A stretch of DNA of 40,716 bases, from the IMG/VR virus record IMGVR_UViG_2636415959_000005; one strand, written 5' to 3'. The position numbers and the translations under genes are program-made. Each line of letters opens with the position of its first letter. Positions within the stretch are counted from its first letter, which is position 1. The notes beneath the pieces were generated by a model that worked only from the letters and a program-made list of their open reading frames with translations, was not told the origin of the DNA and did no database searches. Source of the DNA: a virus. Its lineage: Duplodnaviria; Heunggongvirae; Uroviricota; Caudoviricetes. Of the stretch, positions 1 to 29,530 are shown piece after piece.

Positions 1-477
1 ATGAAACTCATCAGTAATGATCTGCGCGATGGCGATAAGTTGCCGCATCGTCATGTCTTTAACGGCATGGGTTACGATGGCGATAATATTTCACCGCATC
101 TGGCGTGGGATGATGTTCCTGCGGGAACGAAAAGTTTTGTTGTCACCTGCTACGACCCGGATGCGCCAACCGGCTCCGGCTGGTGGCACTGGGTAGTTGT
201 TAATTTACCCGCTGATACCCGCGTATTACCGCAAGGGTTTGGCTCTGGTCTGGTAGCAATGCCAGACGGCGTTTTGCAGACGCGTACCGATTTTGGTAAA
301 ACCGGATACGATGGCGCAGCGCCGCCGAAAGGCGAAACCCATCGCTACATTTTTACCGTTCACGCGCTGGATGTAGAGCGTATTGATGTCGATGAAGGAG
401 CCAGCGGCGCGATGGTCGGGTTTAACGTTCATTTCCACTCTCTGGCAAGCGCCTCGATTACTGCGATGTTTAGTTAA
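1..477 (+). CDS. ybhB: PEBP/UPF0098-family kinase-inhibitor-like protein YbhB (host gene)
   Basis: Full 158-aa ORF; translation matches E. coli YbhB as I recall it; lies immediately outside the att core. Confidence 0.9.
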   Translation: MKLISNDLRDGDKLPHRHVFNGMGYDGDNISPHLAWDDVPAGTKSFVVTCYDPDAPTGSGWWHWVVVNLPADTRVLPQGFGSGLVAMPDGVLQTRTDFGKTGYDGAAPPKGETHRYIFTVHALDVERIDVDEGASGAMVGFNVHFHSLASASITAMFS

Positions 478-2248: not shown

Positions 2249-3960
2249 TTATAGTAGTCTGGTAATGCTAAATGCAAACGAACTGGAGATTCCTGCTCCG
2301 CTAAGCGTATTGCGCAGGGTCACCCTAAATGTATCTACGCCAATATAAGTAACATCACAACTAACTGAATCAGGCGCAGATATAGGTGTTATCTGAACCA
2401 CATAACCATTAGTAGCTGCTGCGAGCGGATGAGAAAACGTTACATCATACACACCAGTAGCTACCACGCTTACTGAGGACACACCTGGAGCCACATCAAT
2501 GCTGCCATTCGAGTTAATCCTTCCAGAACGAGTAATACTTCCAGCAGAGACAGAAGTAGCCTTGCTGGTTTGCTCCATGAAAGTACAGCCAATATCAATT
2601 ACTTCGCAGTTAGAGCCTGTAACCCAATACGGTCGCGAGGCGCTTGGGACGTAAGAACCTACGCTCTTGAATGTCGTACCATTGAGAATTACAGTTACTT
2701 TTCCACCGCCAGAGCTTGTAATATTTAAGTTGTTTATGGTGTACATCGTACTGCTAACACGATGGAAGTTGCCGCCGTTAATAATTACGGTGACGGGGCG
2801 CGTTCCCGTGTTATCAATGCCAAGGTCAGAACCACCAGCGTTAGCCTCAAAATATGGGTTATTAAGTACCAAAGCACATGACCCATTAAGACCGTTCACG
2901 GCAATCTGCATACCGCCAGTGCCAGTATTACCTTGCGTGCCGTTACCCTCACAGGTAAGGCTATTGATGGTAGTCCCTGCGCCCCATCTGTCACCAAGTA
3001 TACCCCATTGTGTATTCTGGCTTGCGGTTAATCTGTTGACAGTAATTGCATTAAGTTCTGAAAAATCATCAGAATTAAGCACTCGCCACCCAATACGATT
3101 TGCCTGCAGGTACACATTATCCAATTCAGAAGTCAATACAGCGTCTGTTCGTAAACCTTCGCCGTTGGTATGTCCGTAAGATACTATATTCTCTAACTTG
3201 GCATATGCTTTCTTGGTTACGAGAAGACCGTAAGACGTTGCTGAGCCTTTAAGCGTAATATTTCCGAGATAATCATACGCATGTACTCGCTGTGTGCCAC
3301 CAACTGTATCACCGAGCATCTTTAAGTTGAAATCCGAGGCATGGCAGTTAAATATCGTTTCTGCCATATTTTCTCCGGAATAATGAGCACGGACTCCTGT
3401 CGAACCAATAAATTTAGCGTCATAGTTGCCGTAATCAAGAACGAGTGGTGACGCGATATCGTACACCCCTTGCTTTATTTTTAATGTTCCACCGAAAGGC
3501 CACGATGTAAGCGGGTCTTGATATATTTCATTTTTTATTGCAAATAGCTCCTCTTGGAGATTTTTGCCGCTATTAGTGCCAATGTGAGCAGCTCCTTCAT
3601 CTGATTGAAGTAACTGCTTTAACTGATCAGGATCGTACTTCAGCACATTCTGAAAATAGAACTGCTGCGAACCATACGCATCATATACAGCCATTGAATG
3701 GCCTTGCTCAGTTACAAATTTGGCAATCTGCCCGTTGTACACAGGATATCCGGCAGCATTGATAACAATTGGCTGAGAAACAGGGACGTGAGATCCGTCT
3801 TCATTCTCTACATAAACCTGAATCTGGTTTTCAGGATTTACCGGGTCAGTGTCAATTTTTCCGATATAAATTTTGCCATTGGCTACGGCTTTAAAAGAAC
3901 GCGCCATAGTGAAGAGTTGCGAAGGCATGCTTACCACAATATTTGCGGTGATATCTGACA
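2249..3960 (-). CDS. Tailspike protein (P22 gp9-like N-terminal head-binding domain, distinct receptor-binding domain)
   Basis: N-terminus [13 protein letters not shown]…[13 protein letters not shown]…LKYDPDQ matches the P22 tailspike head-binding domain; start set at MSDITAN (track ORF runs to 4009). Confidence 0.85.
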
Positions 3961-4082
3961 TTTCATTGCTCCAGACGAATGATATGATGCAACCATGATG
4001 TGATTGCATACCGAAATGGTACTATTGAGTATTTATCCAGTAAGTTACGATGCCATTCCACCCAACTGGTGAGGCATCAAGG

Positions 4083-16381: not shown

Positions 16382-17797
16382 TCAACCTACACCACAAGGA
16401 ATTGAGTAACTGGAATAGTCGGGTTGCGCAGCCGACTCCGGGCAATGCATACACATCATCAACGCATCAGCCAGGTTAGGAGATGGAATACCGAGCTTCT
16501 GCTTCATTTCGACCTTAGTCATTAGCTCCAGCTTCCCGTTGTTATTGAATTTGCGCTGAATCTGCGTCAGTTCTGCAAACAGCTTCTCCAGTATCTTCTC
16601 GCCTATCGCTTCTTTGTCGAAACTCAGCATGTCGTCGGGATCTGCATACTCACCGTGAACAACCGCCCGATATGTCAGATACAGCCTGTCAGCCAGCGCG
16701 TAATAGAATTGCGCTCGCTTATTGCGGAATACATCGCCAATAGTGCGAACGTTGTCACCCTGTACGACTTCATCAGCCCATGCTCCGGCCTGATATGGTG
16801 CATCTTCATCGAATGGCGATTCACTGCCCTTGAACATCGTGGCGGTGATTTTCTTGCCGGAGAACGCTTCCGTTGTCTGTCTGCGTAGCCCCGCACCGAC
16901 GCCATCACCATCCCACAGGTAATGGTCAGCGCCGTCTTCAATCGCCAGCGAAGTAGCCCAGTCAGCACCCTCGTTGATGTCCATCAGCAGACCTTCGGCA
17001 ATGCGCTTAACTACCGAACCGTGACGCGATGCGTAACCTTTAGCATCTGGCCCTGTATCTGATGGGTCATGCGCAGAGACAACCGCGCCCTTCGCTTTCC
17101 ATCCGAGTTTCTTGTGCGCATCGGTTGCGGCTTCAAGCCATTCACGTTTGATGATTGCCATATCACTTGCGCTTACTGGCTCACCAAGCCAGATGTGACG
17201 ATACAATGTCGGATTTCTGCGTTTGCACTCTTCCATCTCCAGACGGAGAACTTCAGGAAAGTGCGGGTTGTCGGTGTAGTTCACCGTCAGCAGACAAATA
17301 TCATTGGGAGGGTTTACTACGAATCGCTGATAGGTATCGTCGAGGATGTTTTTCGGGTTGAAGCTCACCCATATTTCGGAAAATGGCTTGCGGATGGTTG
17401 GTATCAGGATATCCCATGATTCCTTCGTTACCGCTTCCGCTTCCTCCACCCAGCAGATATCAATACCTTCGAGCGATTTAATCTTCGTCGGGTTGTTTTT
17501 GATGCCGTAGAACATGAATTCAGCGTTCGTTCCGAGATGACGAATCATGGAACGCTGAATTTCAAACTCGGCCGAATACCCTTCCCGCTCTATGGTGTCT
17601 TCAAGCAACCGGATTACCGAATCGCTGATACTGTTTTGCAGTTCACGAGCGCAGAGAATACGCACAGGCTGCCGACGCGCCGCTTCAACAAGCAGTCTCG
17701 CAATTGCCCATGATTTACCGCTACCTCGACCGCCTTTGGCGACTTTGTAGCGATGCGCCTCAATGAACGGTTCAAAGATAGGATTAATCGAGGTCAT
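16382..17797 (-). CDS. Terminase large subunit
   Basis: 471-aa ORF with Walker A-like N-terminus (VAKGGRGSGKSWA); size and position match Sf6/P22 large terminase. Confidence 0.9.
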   Translation of the reverse strand: MTSINPIFEPFIEAHRYKVAKGGRGSGKSWAIARLLVEAARRQPVRILCARELQNSISDSVIRLLEDTIEREGYSAEFEIQRSMIRHLGTNAEFMFYGIKNNPTKIKSLEGIDICWVEEAEAVTKESWDILIPTIRKPFSEIWVSFNPKNILDDTYQRFVVNPPNDICLLTVNYTDNPHFPEVLRLEMEECKRRNPTLYRHIWLGEPVSASDMAIIKREWLEAATDAHKKLGWKAKGAVVSAHDPSDTGPDAKGYASRHGSVVKRIAEGLLMDINEGADWATSLAIEDGADHYLWDGDGVGAGLRRQTTEAFSGKKITATMFKGSESPFDEDAPYQAGAWADEVVQGDNVRTIGDVFRNKRAQFYYALADRLYLTYRAVVHGEYADPDDMLSFDKEAIGEKILEKLFAELTQIQRKFNNNGKLELMTKVEMKQKLGIPSPNLADALMMCMHCPESAAQPDYSSYSIPCGVG

Positions 17798-18222
17798 TTT
17801 CCGAATAGAGTACTCATCGGTGATGTTTCAATCTGGATTGCGCCGCCGTCCTTACCGACAAGCTCGTTAGTTACCTTGTCGCCATACTTACGGGGATTCA
17901 TTCGGGCCAACGCCCATTTGCGTGTATCAACGCGAAGTCTTGCCTTTGCCACCTCAGCAGCATCTGGAATCGCATTGTCAGCAATTTCGAATATCTCTTC
18001 GAAAATAGAATCAGCTCGTGCCTCAGTTGCCTTCGCGTACTTGTCGCGAAAATCCTCATGCTTTGCCAACCAGCGGAAAACAGTGGACTTATCCGGCATA
18101 CCAGGACGCTTACATACTTTCAGCAAACTTTCGCCAGAAGAAAGCAACGAGCAGATATCGTCAGCCACCTCCGGCATATAATCAGAGGGGCGACCAGCTT
18201 TTGGTTCAGTCGCCATATTCAT
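17794..18222 (-). CDS. Terminase small subunit (Sf6 gp1-like)
   Basis: Translation (…MATEPKAGRPSDYMPEVADDICSLL…) matches my recollection of Sf6 small terminase; overlaps the large-terminase start. Start may be MATEPK (18216). Confidence 0.8.
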   Translation of the reverse strand: MNMATEPKAGRPSDYMPEVADDICSLLSSGESLLKVCKRPGMPDKSTVFRWLAKHEDFRDKYAKATEARADSIFEEIFEIADNAIPDAAEVAKARLRVDTRKWALARMNPRKYGDKVTNELVGKDGGAIQIETSPMSTLFGK

Positions 18223-18239
18223 CTCACTTAATTGTCATT

Positions 18240-18419
18240 TCAGGCTGAGGACTCTTTCGCGCCTTCAATCAGTGACTGCTTCAGCAATTCGAGTGTACCA
18301 ATCGCCTCGCATAAACTGATTTCACCATCGTAATCATGGATGACGCTTTCCAGCCGCTCGTATAGCTCTTGAGTAATTGGGAATTTCTTCTCCTTACCCA
18401 AATTGATTACGCGGCTCAC
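18240..18419 (-). CDS. Possible small protein with GTG start (59 aa)
   Basis: Open frame VSRVINLGKEKKFPITQELYERLESVIHDYDGEISLCEAIGTLELLKQSLIEGAKESSA with a ggag RBS 7 nt upstream of the GTG; no in-frame ATG. Confidence 0.3.
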   Translation of the reverse strand: MSRVINLGKEKKFPITQELYERLESVIHDYDGEISLCEAIGTLELLKQSLIEGAKESSA

Positions 18420-18420
18420 A

Positions 18421-18663
18421 TCATGCTCCGGTGGTGAACAGGTCTAACGCTTCCTTCGATTTACGCACCGCTTCGAATGTGCGGATCGTGATATCTGAAT
18501 TAGCGCCGCCTGACTGGAAGTGAATTTTGAATAGCTCAAGCTTCAGCTCGTCAGTGCCAATGAACTGAAATGCTTCCTCTGCGGCTGCGTTCTGGTTCAT
18601 GACCAGTTTGTAAATCTCTAACTGGAATTTCTGTTCTTCAGTCATGGGAATAATCTCTGCCAT
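18421..18663 (-). CDS. Hypothetical small protein (80 aa)
   Basis: ORF with a ggag RBS about 9 nt upstream of the ATG; no homolog recognised. Confidence 0.5.
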   Translation of the reverse strand: MAEIIPMTEEQKFQLEIYKLVMNQNAAAEEAFQFIGTDELKLELFKIHFQSGGANSDITIRTFEAVRKSKEALDLFTTGA

Positions 18664-18685
18664 TGTTGGCTCCGTTTATCCGTTA

Positions 18686-18711
18686 AAAGGGATATCAGTT
18701 AAGATATCCCG
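18686..18711. repeat. Perfect 8-bp inverted repeat GGGATATC-agttaa-GATATCCC in a 287-bp non-coding spacer
   Basis: Read directly; on the minus strand it is followed by TTTTAACGG, so it may act as a terminator or attenuator. Confidence 0.5.
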
Positions 18712-18966
18712 TGTAGGGTATAAGCCATTGTCGAGACCACTCATTGAATGGTCTCTGCAATAACCGATGTCTTTCCATCAGTCCGCCACCACAAAGAATC
18801 TTTTTTGCCATAAGGCAGGAGGTTCATCTTTCAGTGGCTGCCAGTGTTATTTCCCCACTTTCTGGCTTGGGTTGTTTCGCTGTACTGCCGTTAACTGGTG
18901 ACCTAGAATAAATTCCGGTTTCATTATCAAGCCCACCCGTAGATGGGCTTTGTAATGCCTACATGG

Positions 18967-19488
18967 TTAAATGATTTGCCAGTCTTCTGCTAGAACATCA
19001 GTCTGACTAGCCAGCCACGGCACTAATTTATCGTCCGCTGTTTTCATGGCGATATACGGAAGTTGTTTCGGAGATCGTTTCGATTCTCCATGCGTACCTT
19101 CAGGCAACTCAAAGACGCGACTGCAAAAGCAAGGCGTACTGCCAGTATGAACAGCCTCAGTGTACGGTTTAACGTATGCCAGCCACATGCCCTTACCATT
19201 CCAGCCAGCACGGGCAACTTTATTCCCCAACTTGAGCGCTTCAATGGCAAGGCCGAAACTTAGCCCTGATACCGGACGATAAGCCTTTTCGAATACTTCT
19301 TTTGGACTCCAGCTAACGTAGCCATCAAAGCGATCGGTGTTAGGTTTTCCGCCATCAAGATATTCAACCAGATAGCCTTCATCCTCGCCGTTTTCTCCGG
19401 CAGGAAGCTGCCAGCCACGAAAATCGTTATATGCCTGTCTCGTCATCGGAAAGGCGTTAATCAGTTTTACGCCAATATGCTGGGTCAT
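18967..19488 (-). CDS. Two-domain hypothetical protein; C-terminal half resembles the DUF2829 family
   Basis: 173-aa ORF; C-terminal motifs (…ALKLGNKVARAGWNGKGMWLAY…PWLASQTDVLAEDWQII) resemble DUF2829 as I recall it. Not verified by profile search. Confidence 0.45.
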   Translation of the reverse strand: MTQHIGVKLINAFPMTRQAYNDFRGWQLPAGENGEDEGYLVEYLDGGKPNTDRFDGYVSWSPKEVFEKAYRPVSGLSFGLAIEALKLGNKVARAGWNGKGMWLAYVKPYTEAVHTGSTPCFCSRVFELPEGTHGESKRSPKQLPYIAMKTADDKLVPWLASQTDVLAEDWQII

Positions 19489-19566
19489 AAAATTACCTAT
19501 AGAGTTGGGAATAAAAAGCCCCGCATCGCGAGGCTCATTAAATGGACTTTGTGATTTGCAAAAAAA

Positions 19567-20043
19567 TTATTTCAGGCATTGCGTCCTGATGTATTCCTGA
19601 AGCGTTCTCAGTGCTGTTTGGTCGCGGATAATTCCGTCCCGGACACCGAGAACGTTTCGTCCAGCAACTGGAGAGAGTTCGACGGTGGCATCATTGCCCA
19701 TGCCGGAGGCGCTGGAGGCGCTGGAGGCTTCGGCTGAGGATGGCACAGGGCATTTTCCTTTGACGAGCACCCTGCCACCATTATCAAGCTTGCGCAGAAG
19801 AGCATCATTTTCAGCTTTCGCATCAGCTAATTCCTTCGTGTATTTAGCATCGAGTGCATCAGCATCACGCTGACGCTGCTGCATGTCAGCGATGGTGGCA
19901 GTCGCCTGCTTCAGCTCACTGACTTTTTTATCACGCTGTTCTTTGTAGGCGATGGCGTTATCACGGTAATGATTAACAGCCCATGACAGGCAAACGATGA
20001 TGCAGATAACCAGAGCGGAGATAATCGCGGTTACTTTGCTCAT
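19567..20043 (-). CDS. Rz: Spanin inner-membrane subunit Rz
   Basis: N-terminal about 100 aa match lambda Rz ([31 protein letters not shown]…); C-terminal part diverges. Confidence 0.85.
19608..19823 (-). CDS. Rz1: Spanin outer-membrane lipoprotein Rz1 (embedded in Rz, +1 frame)
   Basis: [21 protein letters not shown]… has a lipobox cysteine followed by a proline-rich stretch, as in lambda Rz1. Confidence 0.7.
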
Positions 20044-20516
20044 ACCTCAATCTCTCTTGCCGTTCCGCCTGCCTCTTTGAATTTTGCAATCAGGCTGTCA
20101 GCCTTATGCTCGAACTGACCATAACCAGCGCCCGGAAGTGAAGCCCAGATATTGCTGCAACGGTCGATAGCCTGACGAATATCACCGCGATCAATCATCG
20201 GTAAAGCGCCACGCTCTTTAATCTGCTGCAATGCCACTGCGTCCTGGCTTTTGGGAGAGAAGTCTTTCAGGCCAAGTTGCTTGCGGTAGGCATCCCACCA
20301 ACGTGAAAGAAGCTGGTAACGTCCGGCGGCTGTTGATTTGAGCTTTGGGTTTAGCGTGACAAGTTTGCGAGGGTGATCGGAGTAATCAGTGAATAGCTCT
20401 CCTCCTACAATGACGTCATAACCATGATTTCTGGTTTTCTGACGTCCGTTATCTGTTCCCTCTGACCACGCCAGCATATCGAGGAACGCCTTACGTTGAT
20501 TATTGATTTCCACCAT
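20040..20516 (-). CDS. R: Endolysin R (lambda-type lytic transglycosylase)
   Basis: 158 aa; translation matches lambda R as I recall it ([24 protein letters not shown]…). Confidence 0.95.
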
Positions 20517-20823
20517 CTTCTACTCCGGCTTTTTTAGCAGCGAAGCGTTTGATAAGCGAACCAATCGAGTCAGTACCGATGTAGCCGATGAACACGCTCG
20601 TTATATAAGCGAGATTGCTACTTAGTCCGGCGAAGTCGAGAAGGTCACGAATGAACCAGGCGATAATGGCGCACATCGTTGCGTCGATTACTGTTTTTGT
20701 AAACGCACCGCCATTATATCTGCCGCGAAGGTACGCCATTGCAAACGCAAGGATTGCCCCGATGCCTTGTTCCTTTGCCGCGAGAATGGCGGCTAACAGG
20801 TCATGTTTTTCTGGCATCTTCAT
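20500..20823 (-). CDS. S: Holin/antiholin S (lambda S107/S105 dual start)
   Basis: 107 aa; [35 protein letters not shown]… matches lambda S including the Met1-Lys2-Met3 dual-start motif. Confidence 0.95.
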
Positions 20824-21221
20824 GTCTTACCCCCAATAAGGGGATTTGCTCTATTTAATTAGGAATAAGGTCGATTACTGATAGAACAAATCCAGGCTAC
20901 TGTGTTTAGTAATCAGATTTGTTCGTGACCGATATGCACGGGCAAAACGGCATGAGGTTGTTAGCGCAGCCTCTTGCCACCCGCTTTCACGAAGGTCATA
21001 TGTAGAAGGCCGCAGCGTAACTATCACTGATGAATTCAGGATAGCCAGTGGCTACGGCTCAGTTTGGGTCGTGCTGTTGCTGGTCGGCGATGACGCCTGT
21101 ACGCATTTGGTGATCCGGTTCTGCTTCCGGTACTCGCTTAATTCAGCACAACGGAAAGAGCACTCAATGCATTTAAGCCAAGCCCCATAAGGGAGAATGC
21201 TCTTACCTGTTGCACAGATAT

Positions 21222-21413
21222 AAAAAATCCCGAAACCGTTATGCAGGCTCTAACTATTACCTGCGAACTGTTTCGGGATTGCATTTTGCAGACCTCTCAG
21301 CCTGCGATGGTTGGAGTTCCAGACGATACGTCGAAGTGACCAACTAGGCGGAATCGGTAGTAAGCGCCGCCTCTTTTCATCTCACTACCACAACGAGCGA
21401 ATTAACCCATCGT
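21222..21413 (-). ncRNA. Lambda-type 6S RNA (short pR' transcript ending at tR')
   Basis: Region between Q and S matches lambda pR'–tR' sequence from memory; tR' hairpin cccgaaac…gtttcggg followed by attttttat at about 21222..21277. Confidence 0.7.
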
Positions 21414-21420
21414 TGGGTCA

Positions 21421-21449
21421 AATTTACCCAATTTTATTCAATAAGTCAA
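21421..21449 (-). promoter_or_regulatory. Late promoter pR' (-35 TTGACT, -10 TAAATT) with overlapping qut site
   Basis: Minus-strand sequence TTGACTTATTGAATAAAATTGGGTAAATT as in lambda pR', immediately downstream of Q. Confidence 0.8.
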
Positions 21450-21491
21450 TATCATGCCGTTAATATGTTGCCATCCGTGGCAATCATGCTG

Positions 21492-22115
21492 CTAACGTGT
21501 GACCGCATTCAAAATGTTGTCTGCGATTGACTCTTCCTTGTGGCATTGCACCACCAGAGCGTCATACAGCGGCTTAACAGTGCGTGACCAGGTGGGTTGA
21601 GTAAGGTTTGGGATTAGCATCGTTACAGCGCGATATGCGGCGCTTGCTGGCATTCTTGAATAGCCGACACCTTTGCATCTTCCGCACTCTTTCTCAACAA
21701 CTCTCCCCCACAGCTCTGTTTTTGATATATCAACCGCACGGCCTGTACCGTGACAATCTCTGCATCTTGCGCCCGGCGTCGCGGCACTACGGCAATAATC
21801 CGCATAAGCGAATGTTGCGAGCACTTGCAGTACCTTTGCCTTAGTATTTCCTTCGAGCTTTGCCACACCACGGTATTTCCCCGATACCTTGTGTGCAAAT
21901 TGCATCAGATAGTTGATAGCCTTTTGTTTGTCGTTCTGGCTGAGTTCATGCTTACCGCAGAATGCAGCCATTCCGAATCCGGCTTGTGATTGCGCCATCC
22001 CCATAGCAGCCATCACATCAGTACCGGAAAGAGAGTCAGACGCCGTGGCCCGTGGTGAGTCACTCATCATCGGGCTTTTTGGCGAATGAAATTTAGCTAC
22101 ACTTTCGAGTCTCAT
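21492..22115 (-). CDS. Q: Late-gene antiterminator Q (lambda-type)
   Basis: 207 aa; translation matches lambda Q as I recall it (MRLESVAKFHSPKSPMMSDSPRATASDSLSG…). Confidence 0.95.
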   Translation of the reverse strand: MRLESVAKFHSPKSPMMSDSPRATASDSLSGTDVMAAMGMAQSQAGFGMAAFCGKHELSQNDKQKAINYLMQFAHKVSGKYRGVAKLEGNTKAKVLQVLATFAYADYCRSAATPGARCRDCHGTGRAVDISKTELWGRVVEKECGRCKGVGYSRMPASAAYRAVTMLIPNLTQPTWSRTVKPLYDALVVQCHKEESIADNILNAVTR

Positions 22116-27480: not shown

Positions 27481-28128
27481 ATGAAAACGATGCATGAAAT
27501 TATCGGGGAAAGGATCAAGTCCCTTAGAGAAGCTAAAGGACTTAGCCAGGCTCAATTGGCCAAGCTTTGCGGCTGGGCTGCGCCTTCACGCCTGGGGAAC
27601 TACGAGTTAGGAACAAGAAAGGTTAGCGCGGATGACGCGCTGGTTCTTGGGGCGGCACTCGGCGTATCTCCGGCAAAAATAATGTTTGGCGAGGATTCAG
27701 ACGCCGTATTTCGCCAATATGAATACCCGTTATTTTCTTCAGTGCAGGCCGGGCCATTTTCGGAGGTGGGAAGCTACACAGCCAGCGATGCAAAGGCATG
27801 GGTCCCAACGACCACAAAAGCCAGCGAAAAAGCTTTCTGGCTTGAGGTGAAGGGGCATTCAATGACGGCGCCTCAGGGGGTTCGTCCAAGTTTTCCGGAA
27901 GGCATGCTGATACTCGTTGATCCGGCTGAGCCGGTAGAGTCTGGGGATTTCTGCGTGGCTTCTGCAAATGGTGATTCAGAGGCAACGTTCAAGAAGTATG
28001 AGAAGGATGCAGGGGTTAGTTACCTGGTACCTTTAAACCCGGCATATAGAACCCTGGATTGCGACCATAGCTGCCGCATCATAGGCAAGGTAGTTAAGGC
28101 GCAGTGGCCTGAAGAGACGTTTGGCTGA
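27481..28128 (+). CDS. cI: CI repressor (novel N-terminal HTH domain, lambda-like S24 C-terminal domain)
   Basis: 215 aa; C-terminal part (…[15 protein letters not shown]…[14 protein letters not shown]…QWPEETFG) resembles lambda CI; N-terminal part does not. Alternative start at 27490. Confidence 0.9.
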
Positions 28129-28240: not shown

Positions 28241-29080
28241 ATGAAGAATGGTTTTTATGCGACTTACCGCAGCAAAAATAAAGGGAAAGATAAGTGCTCA
28301 ATAAACCTGTCTGTTTTCCTTAATTCTCTGCTGGCTGATAATCATCACCTGCAGGTTGGCTCCAATTATTTGTATATTCATAAAATCGATGGAAAAACTT
28401 TTCTCTTTACCAAAACAAATGACAAGAGTCTGGTTCAGAAGATAAATCGCTCTAAAGCTTCAGTTGAAGATATTAAGAACAGCCTCGCAGATGACGAATC
28501 ATTGGGATTCCCATCTTTTTTGTTTGTTGAAGGCGACACCATTGGTTTTGCCAGAACTGTTTTCGGGCCGACCACATCCGATCTGACAGATTTTTTAATC
28601 GGGAAAGGAATGTCATTAAGCAGTGGAGAGCGCGTTCAGATAGAGCCACTGATGAGGGGAACCACCAAAGACGATGTTATGCATATGCATTTCATCGGCC
28701 GAACAACGGTGAAGGTAGAAGCCAAGCTACCTGTATTTGGCGATATATTAAAGGTCTTAGGGGCAACAGATATTGAAGGGGAGCTTTTTGACTCATTGGA
28801 TATAGTCATTAAGCCAAAATTTAAAAGGGATATAAAAAAGGTTGCCAAGGATATTATTTCTAACCCGTCACCTCAATTTTCAGACATTAGCCTGCGGGCA
28901 AAAGATGAGGCCGGAGATATTTTAACAGAACATTATCTATCAGAAAAAGGCCATCTCTCAGCGCCTCTGAACAAGGTCACCAATGCTGAGATAGCTGAAG
29001 AGATGGCATATTGCTACGCAAGAATGAAAAGTGATATACTGGAATGTTTTAAAAGGCAGGTGGGCAAAGTTAAGGATTAA
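28241..29080 (+). CDS. rexA: RexA (Rex abortive-infection/exclusion system sensor)
   Basis: 279 aa; translation matches lambda RexA as I recall it (MKNGFYATYRSKNKGKDK…QVGKVKD). Confidence 0.9.
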   Translation: MKNGFYATYRSKNKGKDKCSINLSVFLNSLLADNHHLQVGSNYLYIHKIDGKTFLFTKTNDKSLVQKINRSKASVEDIKNSLADDESLGFPSFLFVEGDTIGFARTVFGPTTSDLTDFLIGKGMSLSSGERVQIEPLMRGTTKDDVMHMHFIGRTTVKVEAKLPVFGDILKVLGATDIEGELFDSLDIVIKPKFKRDIKKVAKDIISNPSPQFSDISLRAKDEAGDILTEHYLSEKGHLSAPLNKVTNAEIAEEMAYCYARMKSDILECFKRQVGKVKD

Positions 29081-29095
29081 TTATCAGGAGTAATT

Positions 29096-29530
29096 ATGCG
29101 GAACAGAATCATGCCTGGTGTTTACATAGTAATAATTCCTTACGTTATCGTAAGCATTTGCTATCTCCTTTTCCGCCACTACATTCCTGGTGTTTCTTTT
29201 TCAGCTCATAGAGATGGCCTTGGGGCGACATTGTCATCATATGCAGGAACCATGATTGCAATCCTGATTGCTGCCTTGACGTTTCTAATCGGAAGCAGAA
29301 CGCGCCGACTGGCCAAGATTAGAGAGTATGGGTATATGACATCGGTAGTTATTGTCTATGCCCTTAGTTTTGTTGAGCTTGGAGCTTTGTTTTTCTGCGG
29401 GTTATTGCTTCTTTCCAGCATAAGCGGCTACATGATACCCACTATCGCCATCGGCATTGCCTCTGCATCGTTCATTCATATATGCATCCTTGTTTTCCAA
29501 CTATATAATTTGACCAGAGAACAAGAATAA
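29096..29530 (+). CDS. rexB: RexB (Rex system membrane protein)
   Basis: 144 aa polytopic membrane protein; matches lambda RexB as I recall it. Confidence 0.9.
   Translation: MRNRIMPGVYIVIIPYVIVSICYLLFRHYIPGVSFSAHRDGLGATLSSYAGTMIAILIAALTFLIGSRTRRLAKIREYGYMTSVVIVYALSFVELGALFFCGLLLLSSISGYMIPTIAIGIASASFIHICILVFQLYNLTREQE

Follow-up and report, generated by a model that had tools for sequence, protein, structure and literature searches.

Four families of phage protein, Tad2, Sequestin, Acb4 and RyR-Tad, have been validated as sponges of immune signals (bioRxiv 10.1101/2025.07.12.664507, 10.1101/2024.12.30.630793, 10.64898/2026.06.04.730250), with the Acb4 family acting as a sponge against the cyclic-oligonucleotide-based antiphage signalling system (CBASS; bioRxiv 10.1101/2024.12.30.630793). 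Tad2 genes have already been noted in coliphage hotspots. Sequestin was itself found through the logic of domain fusions, applied to Pfam families only (Tal et al., bioRxiv 10.1101/2025.07.12.664507). For Acb4, Chang et al. note no more than 'additional extensions' in some homologues. In the RyR-Tad of Pectobacterium phage CB1 (gp68), the N-terminal domain has a fold of unknown function and forms a strand-swapped dimer in the crystal structure (bioRxiv 10.64898/2026.06.04.730250). Here we analyze IMG/VR viral record IMGVR_UViG_2636415959_000005, a stretch of 40,716 nucleotides referred to below as the window, and a 173-amino-acid (aa) open reading frame (ORF) in its late operon. The ORF joins a Tad2 domain to a homologue of the gp68 N-terminal domain, and its product is probably a phage 'sponge' that dampens immunity based on nucleotide signals.

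A two-domain member of the Tad2 family

Residues 77-173 of the protein match Pfam PF11195 ('Tad2-like, Thoeris anti-defense 2-like domain') with E=2e-25 and 89.5 bits, against a cut-off of 25 bits, over profile positions 2-73 of 73. PHROG 872 matches the protein over its full length (1.6e-72), and NCBIfam gave zero matches for this ORF and for the two small ORFs (80 aa and 59 aa) that follow it. The top sequence matches in the PDB, at E-values of 1e-13 to 1e-16, are all Tad2 proteins: ModTad2 (9eib, the best at 2.7e-16), HgmTad2/AcrIIA7 (8kbi, 2.8e-15), SptTad2 (8wjd) and SPO1 Tad2 (8sme), together with entries 8v3e and 9kzr (1.4e-14). Searching with an AlphaFold model of the whole protein (mean predicted local distance difference test, pLDDT, 83.7), Foldseek returned 24 Tad2 chains at probability 1.0, with target-normalised template modelling (TM) scores of 0.60-0.81, and nothing else significant. 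The Tad2 fold occupies residues 78-173 of the model, with a helix at 78-86, strands, a second helix at 162-166 and a closing strand at 170-172. The initial annotation, made from the letters alone, had taken the C-terminal half for a possible DUF2829 (Tad2-like) domain, an assignment that profile search and predicted structure both bear out. The motifs it quoted are indeed in the translation (GWNGKGM at residues 95-101, PWLASQTDVLAEDW at residues 157-170), and 'two-domain' is a correct description of the protein, since the Pfam model covers residues 77-173 only.

The residues of the predicted signal pocket are intact. W96, N97, G98, W158, L159, S161, T163 and D164, of which the last five lie in the motif W158-L-A-S-Q-T-D164, align with W21, N22, G23, W87, L88, S90, T92 and D93 of HgmTad2 (motif W87-D93), residues that contact the cyclic ADP-ribose signal gcADPR and whose mutation abolishes binding (bioRxiv 10.1101/2023.11.15.567273). 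The positions also match W25, N26, W73, S76, T78 and D79, the equivalents in SPO1 Tad2 (bioRxiv 10.1101/2023.05.01.538930), and among 33 two-domain homologues they are invariant or nearly so. From the WNG and WLASQTD motifs, the predicted ligand is 3'cADPR/2'cADPR (gcADPR), like that of SPO1 Tad2 and HgmTad2.

Residues 107-146 vary more than any other block when otherwise similar homologues are compared. At about 40 aa, this insertion is close in length to that of HgmTad2 (41 aa) and longer than that of SPO1 Tad2 (24 aa). The corresponding beta2-beta5 insertion of HgmTad2 forms a cyclic-dinucleotide pocket (bioRxiv 10.1101/2023.11.15.567273), and by analogy the 40-residue insertion may form a second pocket here. 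The HgmTad2 contacts to cyclic di-GMP (cGG) and cyclic GMP-AMP (cGAMP), R31, S47, F70 and N85, fall on K107, E127, Q142 and a gap in an alignment that is of low confidence within this variable block; because they are not conserved, the ligand of a second pocket is not predictable.

The exact 173-aa sequence is public as 'MULTISPECIES: DUF2829 domain-containing protein [Enterobacteriaceae]' on 90 contigs, and its full-length architecture is common, as nearly all of the best 120 among 7966 homologues align with 98-100% of the query. Given that the exact protein is in the databases and that the Tad2 mechanism is known, we classify it as a new member of the known anti-Thoeris Tad2 family, with predicted activity. 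At the DNA level the region shares 97.4% identity with phage Kapi1 (gene Kapi1_043), the only one of 209 phage records matching in a near-identity search that covers it in full. Escherichia coli prophage alleles match the gene in two pieces (74% coverage), with the variable insertion replaced. About 30 complete E. coli genomes match just the part coding for the N-terminal domain (19237-19488, 98.8% identity) and others skip the Tad2 insertion, partial matches which show that the gene is mosaic at domain and insertion boundaries. Another E. coli prophage allele with the same N-terminal domain (P0066) has WVPSIGD, a ModTad2-like motif. In a homologue of 354 aa (P0194), an HNH + AP2 homing-endonuclease-like segment lies between the N-terminal domain and the Tad2 domain.

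An N-terminal domain that accompanies signal sponges

The initial annotation had called the N-terminal half uncharacterised, and searches with residues 1-75 found no match in Pfam, in NCBIfam or among PDB sequences; single-sequence and profile searches of the PDB gave nothing credible, just an ankyrin design (E=1.5) and a histamine dehydrogenase (E=0.19). Through an exhaustive search we nevertheless identified 1603 cluster representatives of the domain, and it occurs in 137 phage records. Partner-domain and conservation counts given here refer to the best 150 of the 1603 representatives. Pfam partners in this set are Tad2 (53), Sequestin (PF21825; 37) and Acb4 (PF13876; 20), and purpose-built hidden Markov models detect a Tad2, Sequestin, Acb4 or RyR domain, or several of them, in at least 97 of the 150. 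The N-terminal domain of our protein (hereafter N-domain) can stand at either end or in the middle of these proteins, and three-domain arrangements exist, e.g. Acb4-N-Sequestin. Among isolated phages, it is joined to Tad2 in N4 and a Vibrio phage, and to Acb4 in a Clostridium perfringens phage and the prototype crAssphage; overall its carriers span phages of at least three bacterial phyla. The fusion proposed in the initial annotation thus stands, with the amendment that the N-domain is a widespread module recurring on several sponge families and not a one-off partner. A recurrent association of this domain with the four sponge families was not found in the literature searched. We rejected a stand-alone protein as a common form of the domain, as short hits were mostly truncated or frameshifted fusions.

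Further fusions were seen among the representatives P0247, P0251, P0157, P0185/P0205/P0232, P0172 and P0242, including fusions to WDGH (PF25311) and DUF7307 (Pam3 gp33-like) domains. One fused region is MazG-like by eye, with no Pfam match, and a recurrent helical domain with no family assignment is common to P0185, P0205 and P0232, lying between the N-domain and Sequestin in the last of these. These WDGH, DUF7307, helical and other partners are possible further anti-defence modules. Since the N-domain is fused to Tad2, Sequestin, Acb4 and RyR-Tad alike, it could be used as bait, and the domains of no assigned family found next to it would be candidate new anti-defence modules.

The N-domain is homologous to residues 1-86 of RyR-Tad (CB1 gp68) by BLASTP (E=8e-6, 30% identity), and Foldseek aligns it with a RyR-domain protein of Yersinia phage TG1 (E=1.9e-4, query-normalised TM-score 0.76). 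An N-terminal strand is present at residues 2-5 in the monomer AlphaFold model. Of its roughly 70 positions, 28 are at least 90% conserved across the 150 representatives, and many of these, located in helix 1 and two loops, have aromatic or charged side chains (R17, Y20, R24, W26, E32, D36, E42, D45, N50, Y70). The homologous domain of gp68 (gp68_N) does not have R17, Y20, N21, R24, W26, E32, D36, E42, D45, G46, N50 or Y70.

The nearest solved fold to the N-domain is DUF1653. In the prototype crAssphage (Carjivirus communis; L010, 1-53 and 1501-1950), the gene for the N-domain + Acb4 protein (gp41) lies a few genes from that for a DUF1653 protein (gp36). Three other identities for the domain were considered. 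Lockin was rejected, as it is hexameric and absent from INPHARED phage genomes whereas the N-domain is found in 137 phage records. Acb4/PF13876, the label carried by crAssphage gp41 and by 'N4 gp49', was also rejected, as both domains occupy separate stretches of the same proteins. Tad3-Tad8 were set aside on the wording of the June 2026 preprint and not on sequence; that preprint annotates Tad3 yet calls the gp68 fold 'of unknown function'.

Proposed mechanism and alternative explanations

By homology with the solved Tad2 proteins, the Tad2 domain would assemble into a homotetramer whose inter-subunit pockets would bind and sequester the ADP-ribose-derived signals made by Toll/interleukin-1 receptor (TIR) proteins, so that the Thoeris effector would be kept from switching on. 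For the sponge domains to which it is attached, the N-domain would most likely be either an assembly or dimerisation module or an additional binding module; the former is the role best supported by a homologue, and we favor it tentatively, by analogy with the gp68 dimer. A promoter of its own, a moron trait, was not found for the gene, as a consensus scan gave no sigma-70-like site on the minus strand between 18200 and 19620. Expression is therefore presumably from the Q-dependent late operon, where the sponge would be made along with lysis and virion proteins from the Q-antiterminated late transcript.

Several observations weigh against this interpretation. Ligand specificity inside Tad2 is not readable from sequence, as members bind 3'cADPR, a histidine conjugate of ADP-ribose (His-ADPR), N7-cADPR, cGG/cGAMP or cyclic UMP (cUMP), and the best PDB E-value belongs to ModTad2, a His-ADPR binder that does not inhibit type I Thoeris, though its motif differs. 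Late-operon expression would be unusual for an anti-defence gene that needs to act early. Our literature search found no binding, oligomerisation or defence assay on this protein or on any N-domain + Tad2 homologue, and the Tad2 proteins from Hadary et al. 2025 whose sequences were examined are single-domain. For the N-domain, true stand-alone proteins are rare among the top hits, and gp68_N alone has no activity against type I Thoeris (bioRxiv 10.64898/2026.06.04.730250). As gp68_N keeps only 14 of the 28 positions most conserved in the main clade, neither its role in dimerisation nor its inactivity transfers safely to the N-domain studied here.

The N-domain could instead bind a ligand of its own and constitute one more sponge family, aimed at a different immune signal, in which case the protein would be a sponge-sponge fusion of the Acb4-Tad2, Tad2-Sequestin or Acb4-Sequestin kind, neutralising two pathways. 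Like validated sponge domains, which combine with each other (bioRxiv 10.1101/2025.07.12.664507), the N-domain combines with Tad2, Sequestin, Acb4 and RyR in any order, its strongly conserved polar and aromatic residues cluster in helix 1 and the loops, and E. coli prophages in which the Tad2 part has been swapped retain about 99% identity in the N-domain DNA. Against this, the domain is nearly always fused whereas known sponges mostly stand alone, it is net acidic whereas known sponge pockets are positively charged, and the inactivity of gp68_N alone argues in the same direction, so that we consider such a second sponge possible but doubtful. It is unlikely that the domain, as a Tudor/SH3-like protein-binding module, tethers the sponge to a host or phage protein such as a TIR or cGAS/DncV-like nucleotidyltransferase (CD-NTase) sensor, an effector or RNA polymerase, in place of binding a small molecule.

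Two further alternatives concern the function of the protein or its Tad2 domain. Phages Louie, Huey and Mimir124 have their homologues annotated as 'Anti-CRISPR protein', and the matches to 8kbi and 9kzr show homology to AcrIIA7/HgmTad2, from which an AcrIIA7-type anti-CRISPR might be proposed; the annotation in these three records, however, simply follows the name of the family. Also counting against an AcrIIA7 function, the CRISPR systems of E. coli and its relatives are of type I, and these bacteria are not known to carry type II-A. Attempts by Li et al. to repeat the inhibition of Cas9 with HgmTad2 and its homologues failed both in vitro and in vivo (bioRxiv 10.1101/2023.11.15.567273), and Yirmiya et al. 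argue for an anti-Thoeris and against an anti-CRISPR role of DUF2829 proteins. We regard this explanation as largely refuted and scarcely credible. The Tad2 domain might also mainly sequester a housekeeping messenger such as cyclic di-GMP through its large insertion, thereby altering host physiology and not blocking an immune pathway. Purified from E. coli, HgmTad2 and SptTad2 do bring cGG with them, and they bind it tightly through the equivalent insertion (bioRxiv 10.1101/2023.11.15.567273), which is about as long as the one here (~40 residues). However, the HgmTad2 residues whose mutation abolishes cGG binding (S47, F70 and R31/N85) are replaced here, subject to the uncertain alignment of this block, the gene lies in a late lytic operon and the gcADPR pocket residues are intact, all of which make a housekeeping target very unlikely. 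A sponge of TIR-derived signals remains the interpretation that we prefer.

Genomic context and the variable slot

A complete prophage of the P22-like type (Lederbergvirus), inserted at the lambda attachment locus, makes up the whole window, with a ybhB-like (PEBP family) gene at one end, a ybhC-like pectinesterase gene at the other and a lambda-type integrase gene (Table 1). Late genes are on the minus strand, in the order Q, holin, endolysin, Rz, 173-aa ORF, spacer, DUF2560 ORF, 59-aa ORF, terminases and portal.

Table 1. Features of the window, with the 173-aa ORF and its parts listed first (positions are those of the window)
Feature	Position	Strand	Basis or remark
173-aa ORF, two-domain Tad2-family protein	18967-19488	-	ORF list, PHROG, Pfam; stop codon 18967-18969
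N-terminal domain (residues 1-75), small beta-rich SH3/Tudor-like module accompanying sponge domains	19264-19488	-	
Tad2-like (PF11195/DUF2829) domain (residues 77-173)	18970-19260	-	Pfam, PDB, Foldseek
Variable insertion in Tad2 domain (residues 107-146), with C120 and C122	19051-19170	-	Homologue comparison
Terminator-like GC-rich hairpin and T-run, between Rz and 173-aa ORF	19516-19536	-	Consensus scan
Hairpin I3, directly after ORF stop, downstream slot boundary	18922-18957	-	14-nt arms, 86% complementary
Structured intergenic spacer, 303 bp	18664-18966	-	Folding, inverted repeats
Hairpin I2	18727-18761		Within spacer
38-aa ORF	18695-18811	-	Annotated in phage Louie
80-aa DUF2560 protein (P22 ORF80 / HK620 hkbM / Sf6 gp67), conserved core gene	18421-18663	-	Pfam PF10834, 2.6e-42
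59-aa protein (P22 ORF59C / HK620 hkbN / Sf6 gp68), conserved core gene	18240-18419	-	phrog_3546, 5.7e-43
Sf6-type small terminase	17794-18222	-	Downstream of 59-aa ORF; then large terminase, portal gene
Rz, with Rz1 inside	19567-20043	-	Upstream of 173-aa ORF
Endolysin	20040-20516	-	
Holin	20500-20823	-	
Q	21492-22115	-	
ybhB-like (PEBP family) gene	1-477		Window end
ybhC-like pectinesterase gene	39433-40716		Window end
Lambda-type integrase	38228-39298		
cI-like repressor	27481-28128		
RexA	28241-29080		Pfam RexA, 6e-97
144-aa ORF of RexB size	29096-29530		After RexA gene
Acyl_transf_3 protein, 390 aa	1023-2195		
Tailspike	2249-4009		
tRNA-Ala(cgc), 83 nt, probably spurious	27679-27761		ARAGORN; inside cI-like ORF

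Between Rz and the DUF2560 gene lies a slot occupied by rha in P22, by KilA-N and hkbL in HK620 and by gp65 and gp66 in Sf6; its contents differ among P22, HK620, Sf6, Louie and Kapi1. Sf6 gp66 belongs to the Acb4 family (PF13876, 3.6e-35). From these differing contents, an Acb4 sponge among them, we conclude that the 173-aa gene is single-gene cargo in a slot that can also carry another sponge family. The slot is bounded by a hairpin on each side: Kapi1 homology stops inside the terminator-like hairpin upstream of the ORF, at window position 19535 (query position 1336), and hairpin I3 downstream also follows the unrelated hkbL gene in HK620. In its variable presence at a fixed, hairpin-flanked slot between conserved genes, the 173-aa cassette shows the trait of a moron.

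The initial annotation had described a cargo cluster made up of the 173-aa gene, a 287-bp hairpin-rich spacer and two small ORFs. Both ORFs are present, at 80 aa and 59 aa, but only the 173-aa gene is variable cargo, the other two being conserved in about 200 P22-like phage records. Most of the 209 matching records share just these two ORFs and the adjoining part of the spacer, which sit just upstream of the small terminase gene. The DUF2560 gene is present in P22, HK620, Sf6 and Kapi1, and the 59-aa ORF occupies the same position in P22, HK620 and Sf6. A PDB search gave no informative match for the DUF2560 protein and none for the 59-aa protein.

The spacer is hairpin-rich as described, with a measured length of 303 bp in place of 287 bp. 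Its RNA has a minimum free energy of -104.5 kcal/mol, compared with -73.3 +/- 4.9 for shuffled sequences (z = -6.4; 0 of 100 shuffles as good), and it holds three inverted repeats. An Rfam search of 18200-19620 returned no match. Because the spacer hardly varies among E. coli phages, information on covariation comes from the Sf6 copy alone; compared with it, hairpin I2 shows three compensatory pair changes (GAGACCA/TGGTCTC versus AAAGCCA/TGGCTTT). The 38-aa ORF annotated in phage Louie overlaps the spacer hairpins.

Elsewhere in the prophage, the RexA gene and the RexB-sized ORF that follows it adjoin the cI-like repressor gene. Because the prophage carries RexA, the same element would encode both a defence system and the putative anti-defence sponge. 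The Acyl_transf_3 protein, encoded beside the tailspike gene, is probably an O-antigen acetyltransferase for lysogenic conversion. Between Q and holin (20824-21491), ARAGORN found no tRNA-Asn/tRNA-Thr pair, unlike in Kapi1 and Sf6; its sole call in the window is the tRNA-Ala listed in Table 1.

Comparison with described sponge proteins

The 173-aa protein is a candidate for anti-Thoeris activity that can be put to the test, encoded by a temperate E. coli phage that has an isolated close relative in Kapi1, and the Rz-ORF80 slot of P22-like phages appears as a site of anti-signalling cargo, occupied here by a gene of the Tad2 family and in Sf6 by one of the Acb4 family. Beyond this locus, a conserved domain missing from Pfam accompanies four validated sponge families, including in N4 and the prototype crAssphage, and its role, once understood, could point to a sponge ligand not described so far or to something that sponge proteins generally require. 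As a speculative possibility, we raise that the N-domain is a functional partner of immune-signal sponges in phages that has so far escaped notice, either as a new sponge family or as a universal accessory module; an accessory role could be, for example, sponge assembly or shielding from host sponge sensors.

Among described systems, Sf6 gp66 shares the locus, occupying the same Rz-DUF2560 slot in a related P22-like phage, but it has an unrelated fold and targets CBASS cyclic dinucleotides and not TIR signals. Sponge-sponge fusions such as Pm86 (Acb4-Tad2) and Ab09 gp59 (Acb4-Sequestin) are likewise small multi-domain phage proteins built from sponge modules, and the N-domain belongs to the same combinatorial set; in those fusions, however, both domains are proven sponges, whereas the N-domain here is at most a candidate sponge. 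RyR-Tad (CB1 gp68) is alike in having a homologous N-terminal domain followed by a gcADPR-binding sponge domain and in lying in an anti-signalling hotspot, but the sponge at its C-terminus is not Tad2 but an all-helical domain resembling RyR Repeat12 (Pfam RyR). The same N-domain + Tad2 architecture is found in phage N4 RefSeq gp49 (YP_950527, 160 aa), with 42% full-length identity and a gene that adjoins one of the Acb4 family. N4 gp49 differs in coming from a lytic N4-like phage, where its gene lies in the hotspot between the primase and virion RNA polymerase genes, and in having a shorter Tad2 insertion and the pocket motif WVPSQSD.

The Tad2 domain itself can be compared with three solved proteins. 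ModTad2 (9EIB), which binds His-ADPR and also cUMP/cCMP, has the same fold and the best PDB E-value, but its pocket motif is WTPSVSD, compared with WLASQTD here. SPO1 Tad2 (gp34.65; 8SME/8SMF/8SMG) and HgmTad2/AcrIIA7 (8KBI-8KBM) share the Pfam family, the fold, the GWNGKG loop and WLASQTD, and are also phage-encoded. HgmTad2 has in addition an insertion of comparable length between the central strands, though one unrelated in sequence to the insertion here. Both SPO1 Tad2 and HgmTad2 are single-domain proteins of 89-104 aa, whereas the protein described here has an extra N-terminal domain of 75 residues.

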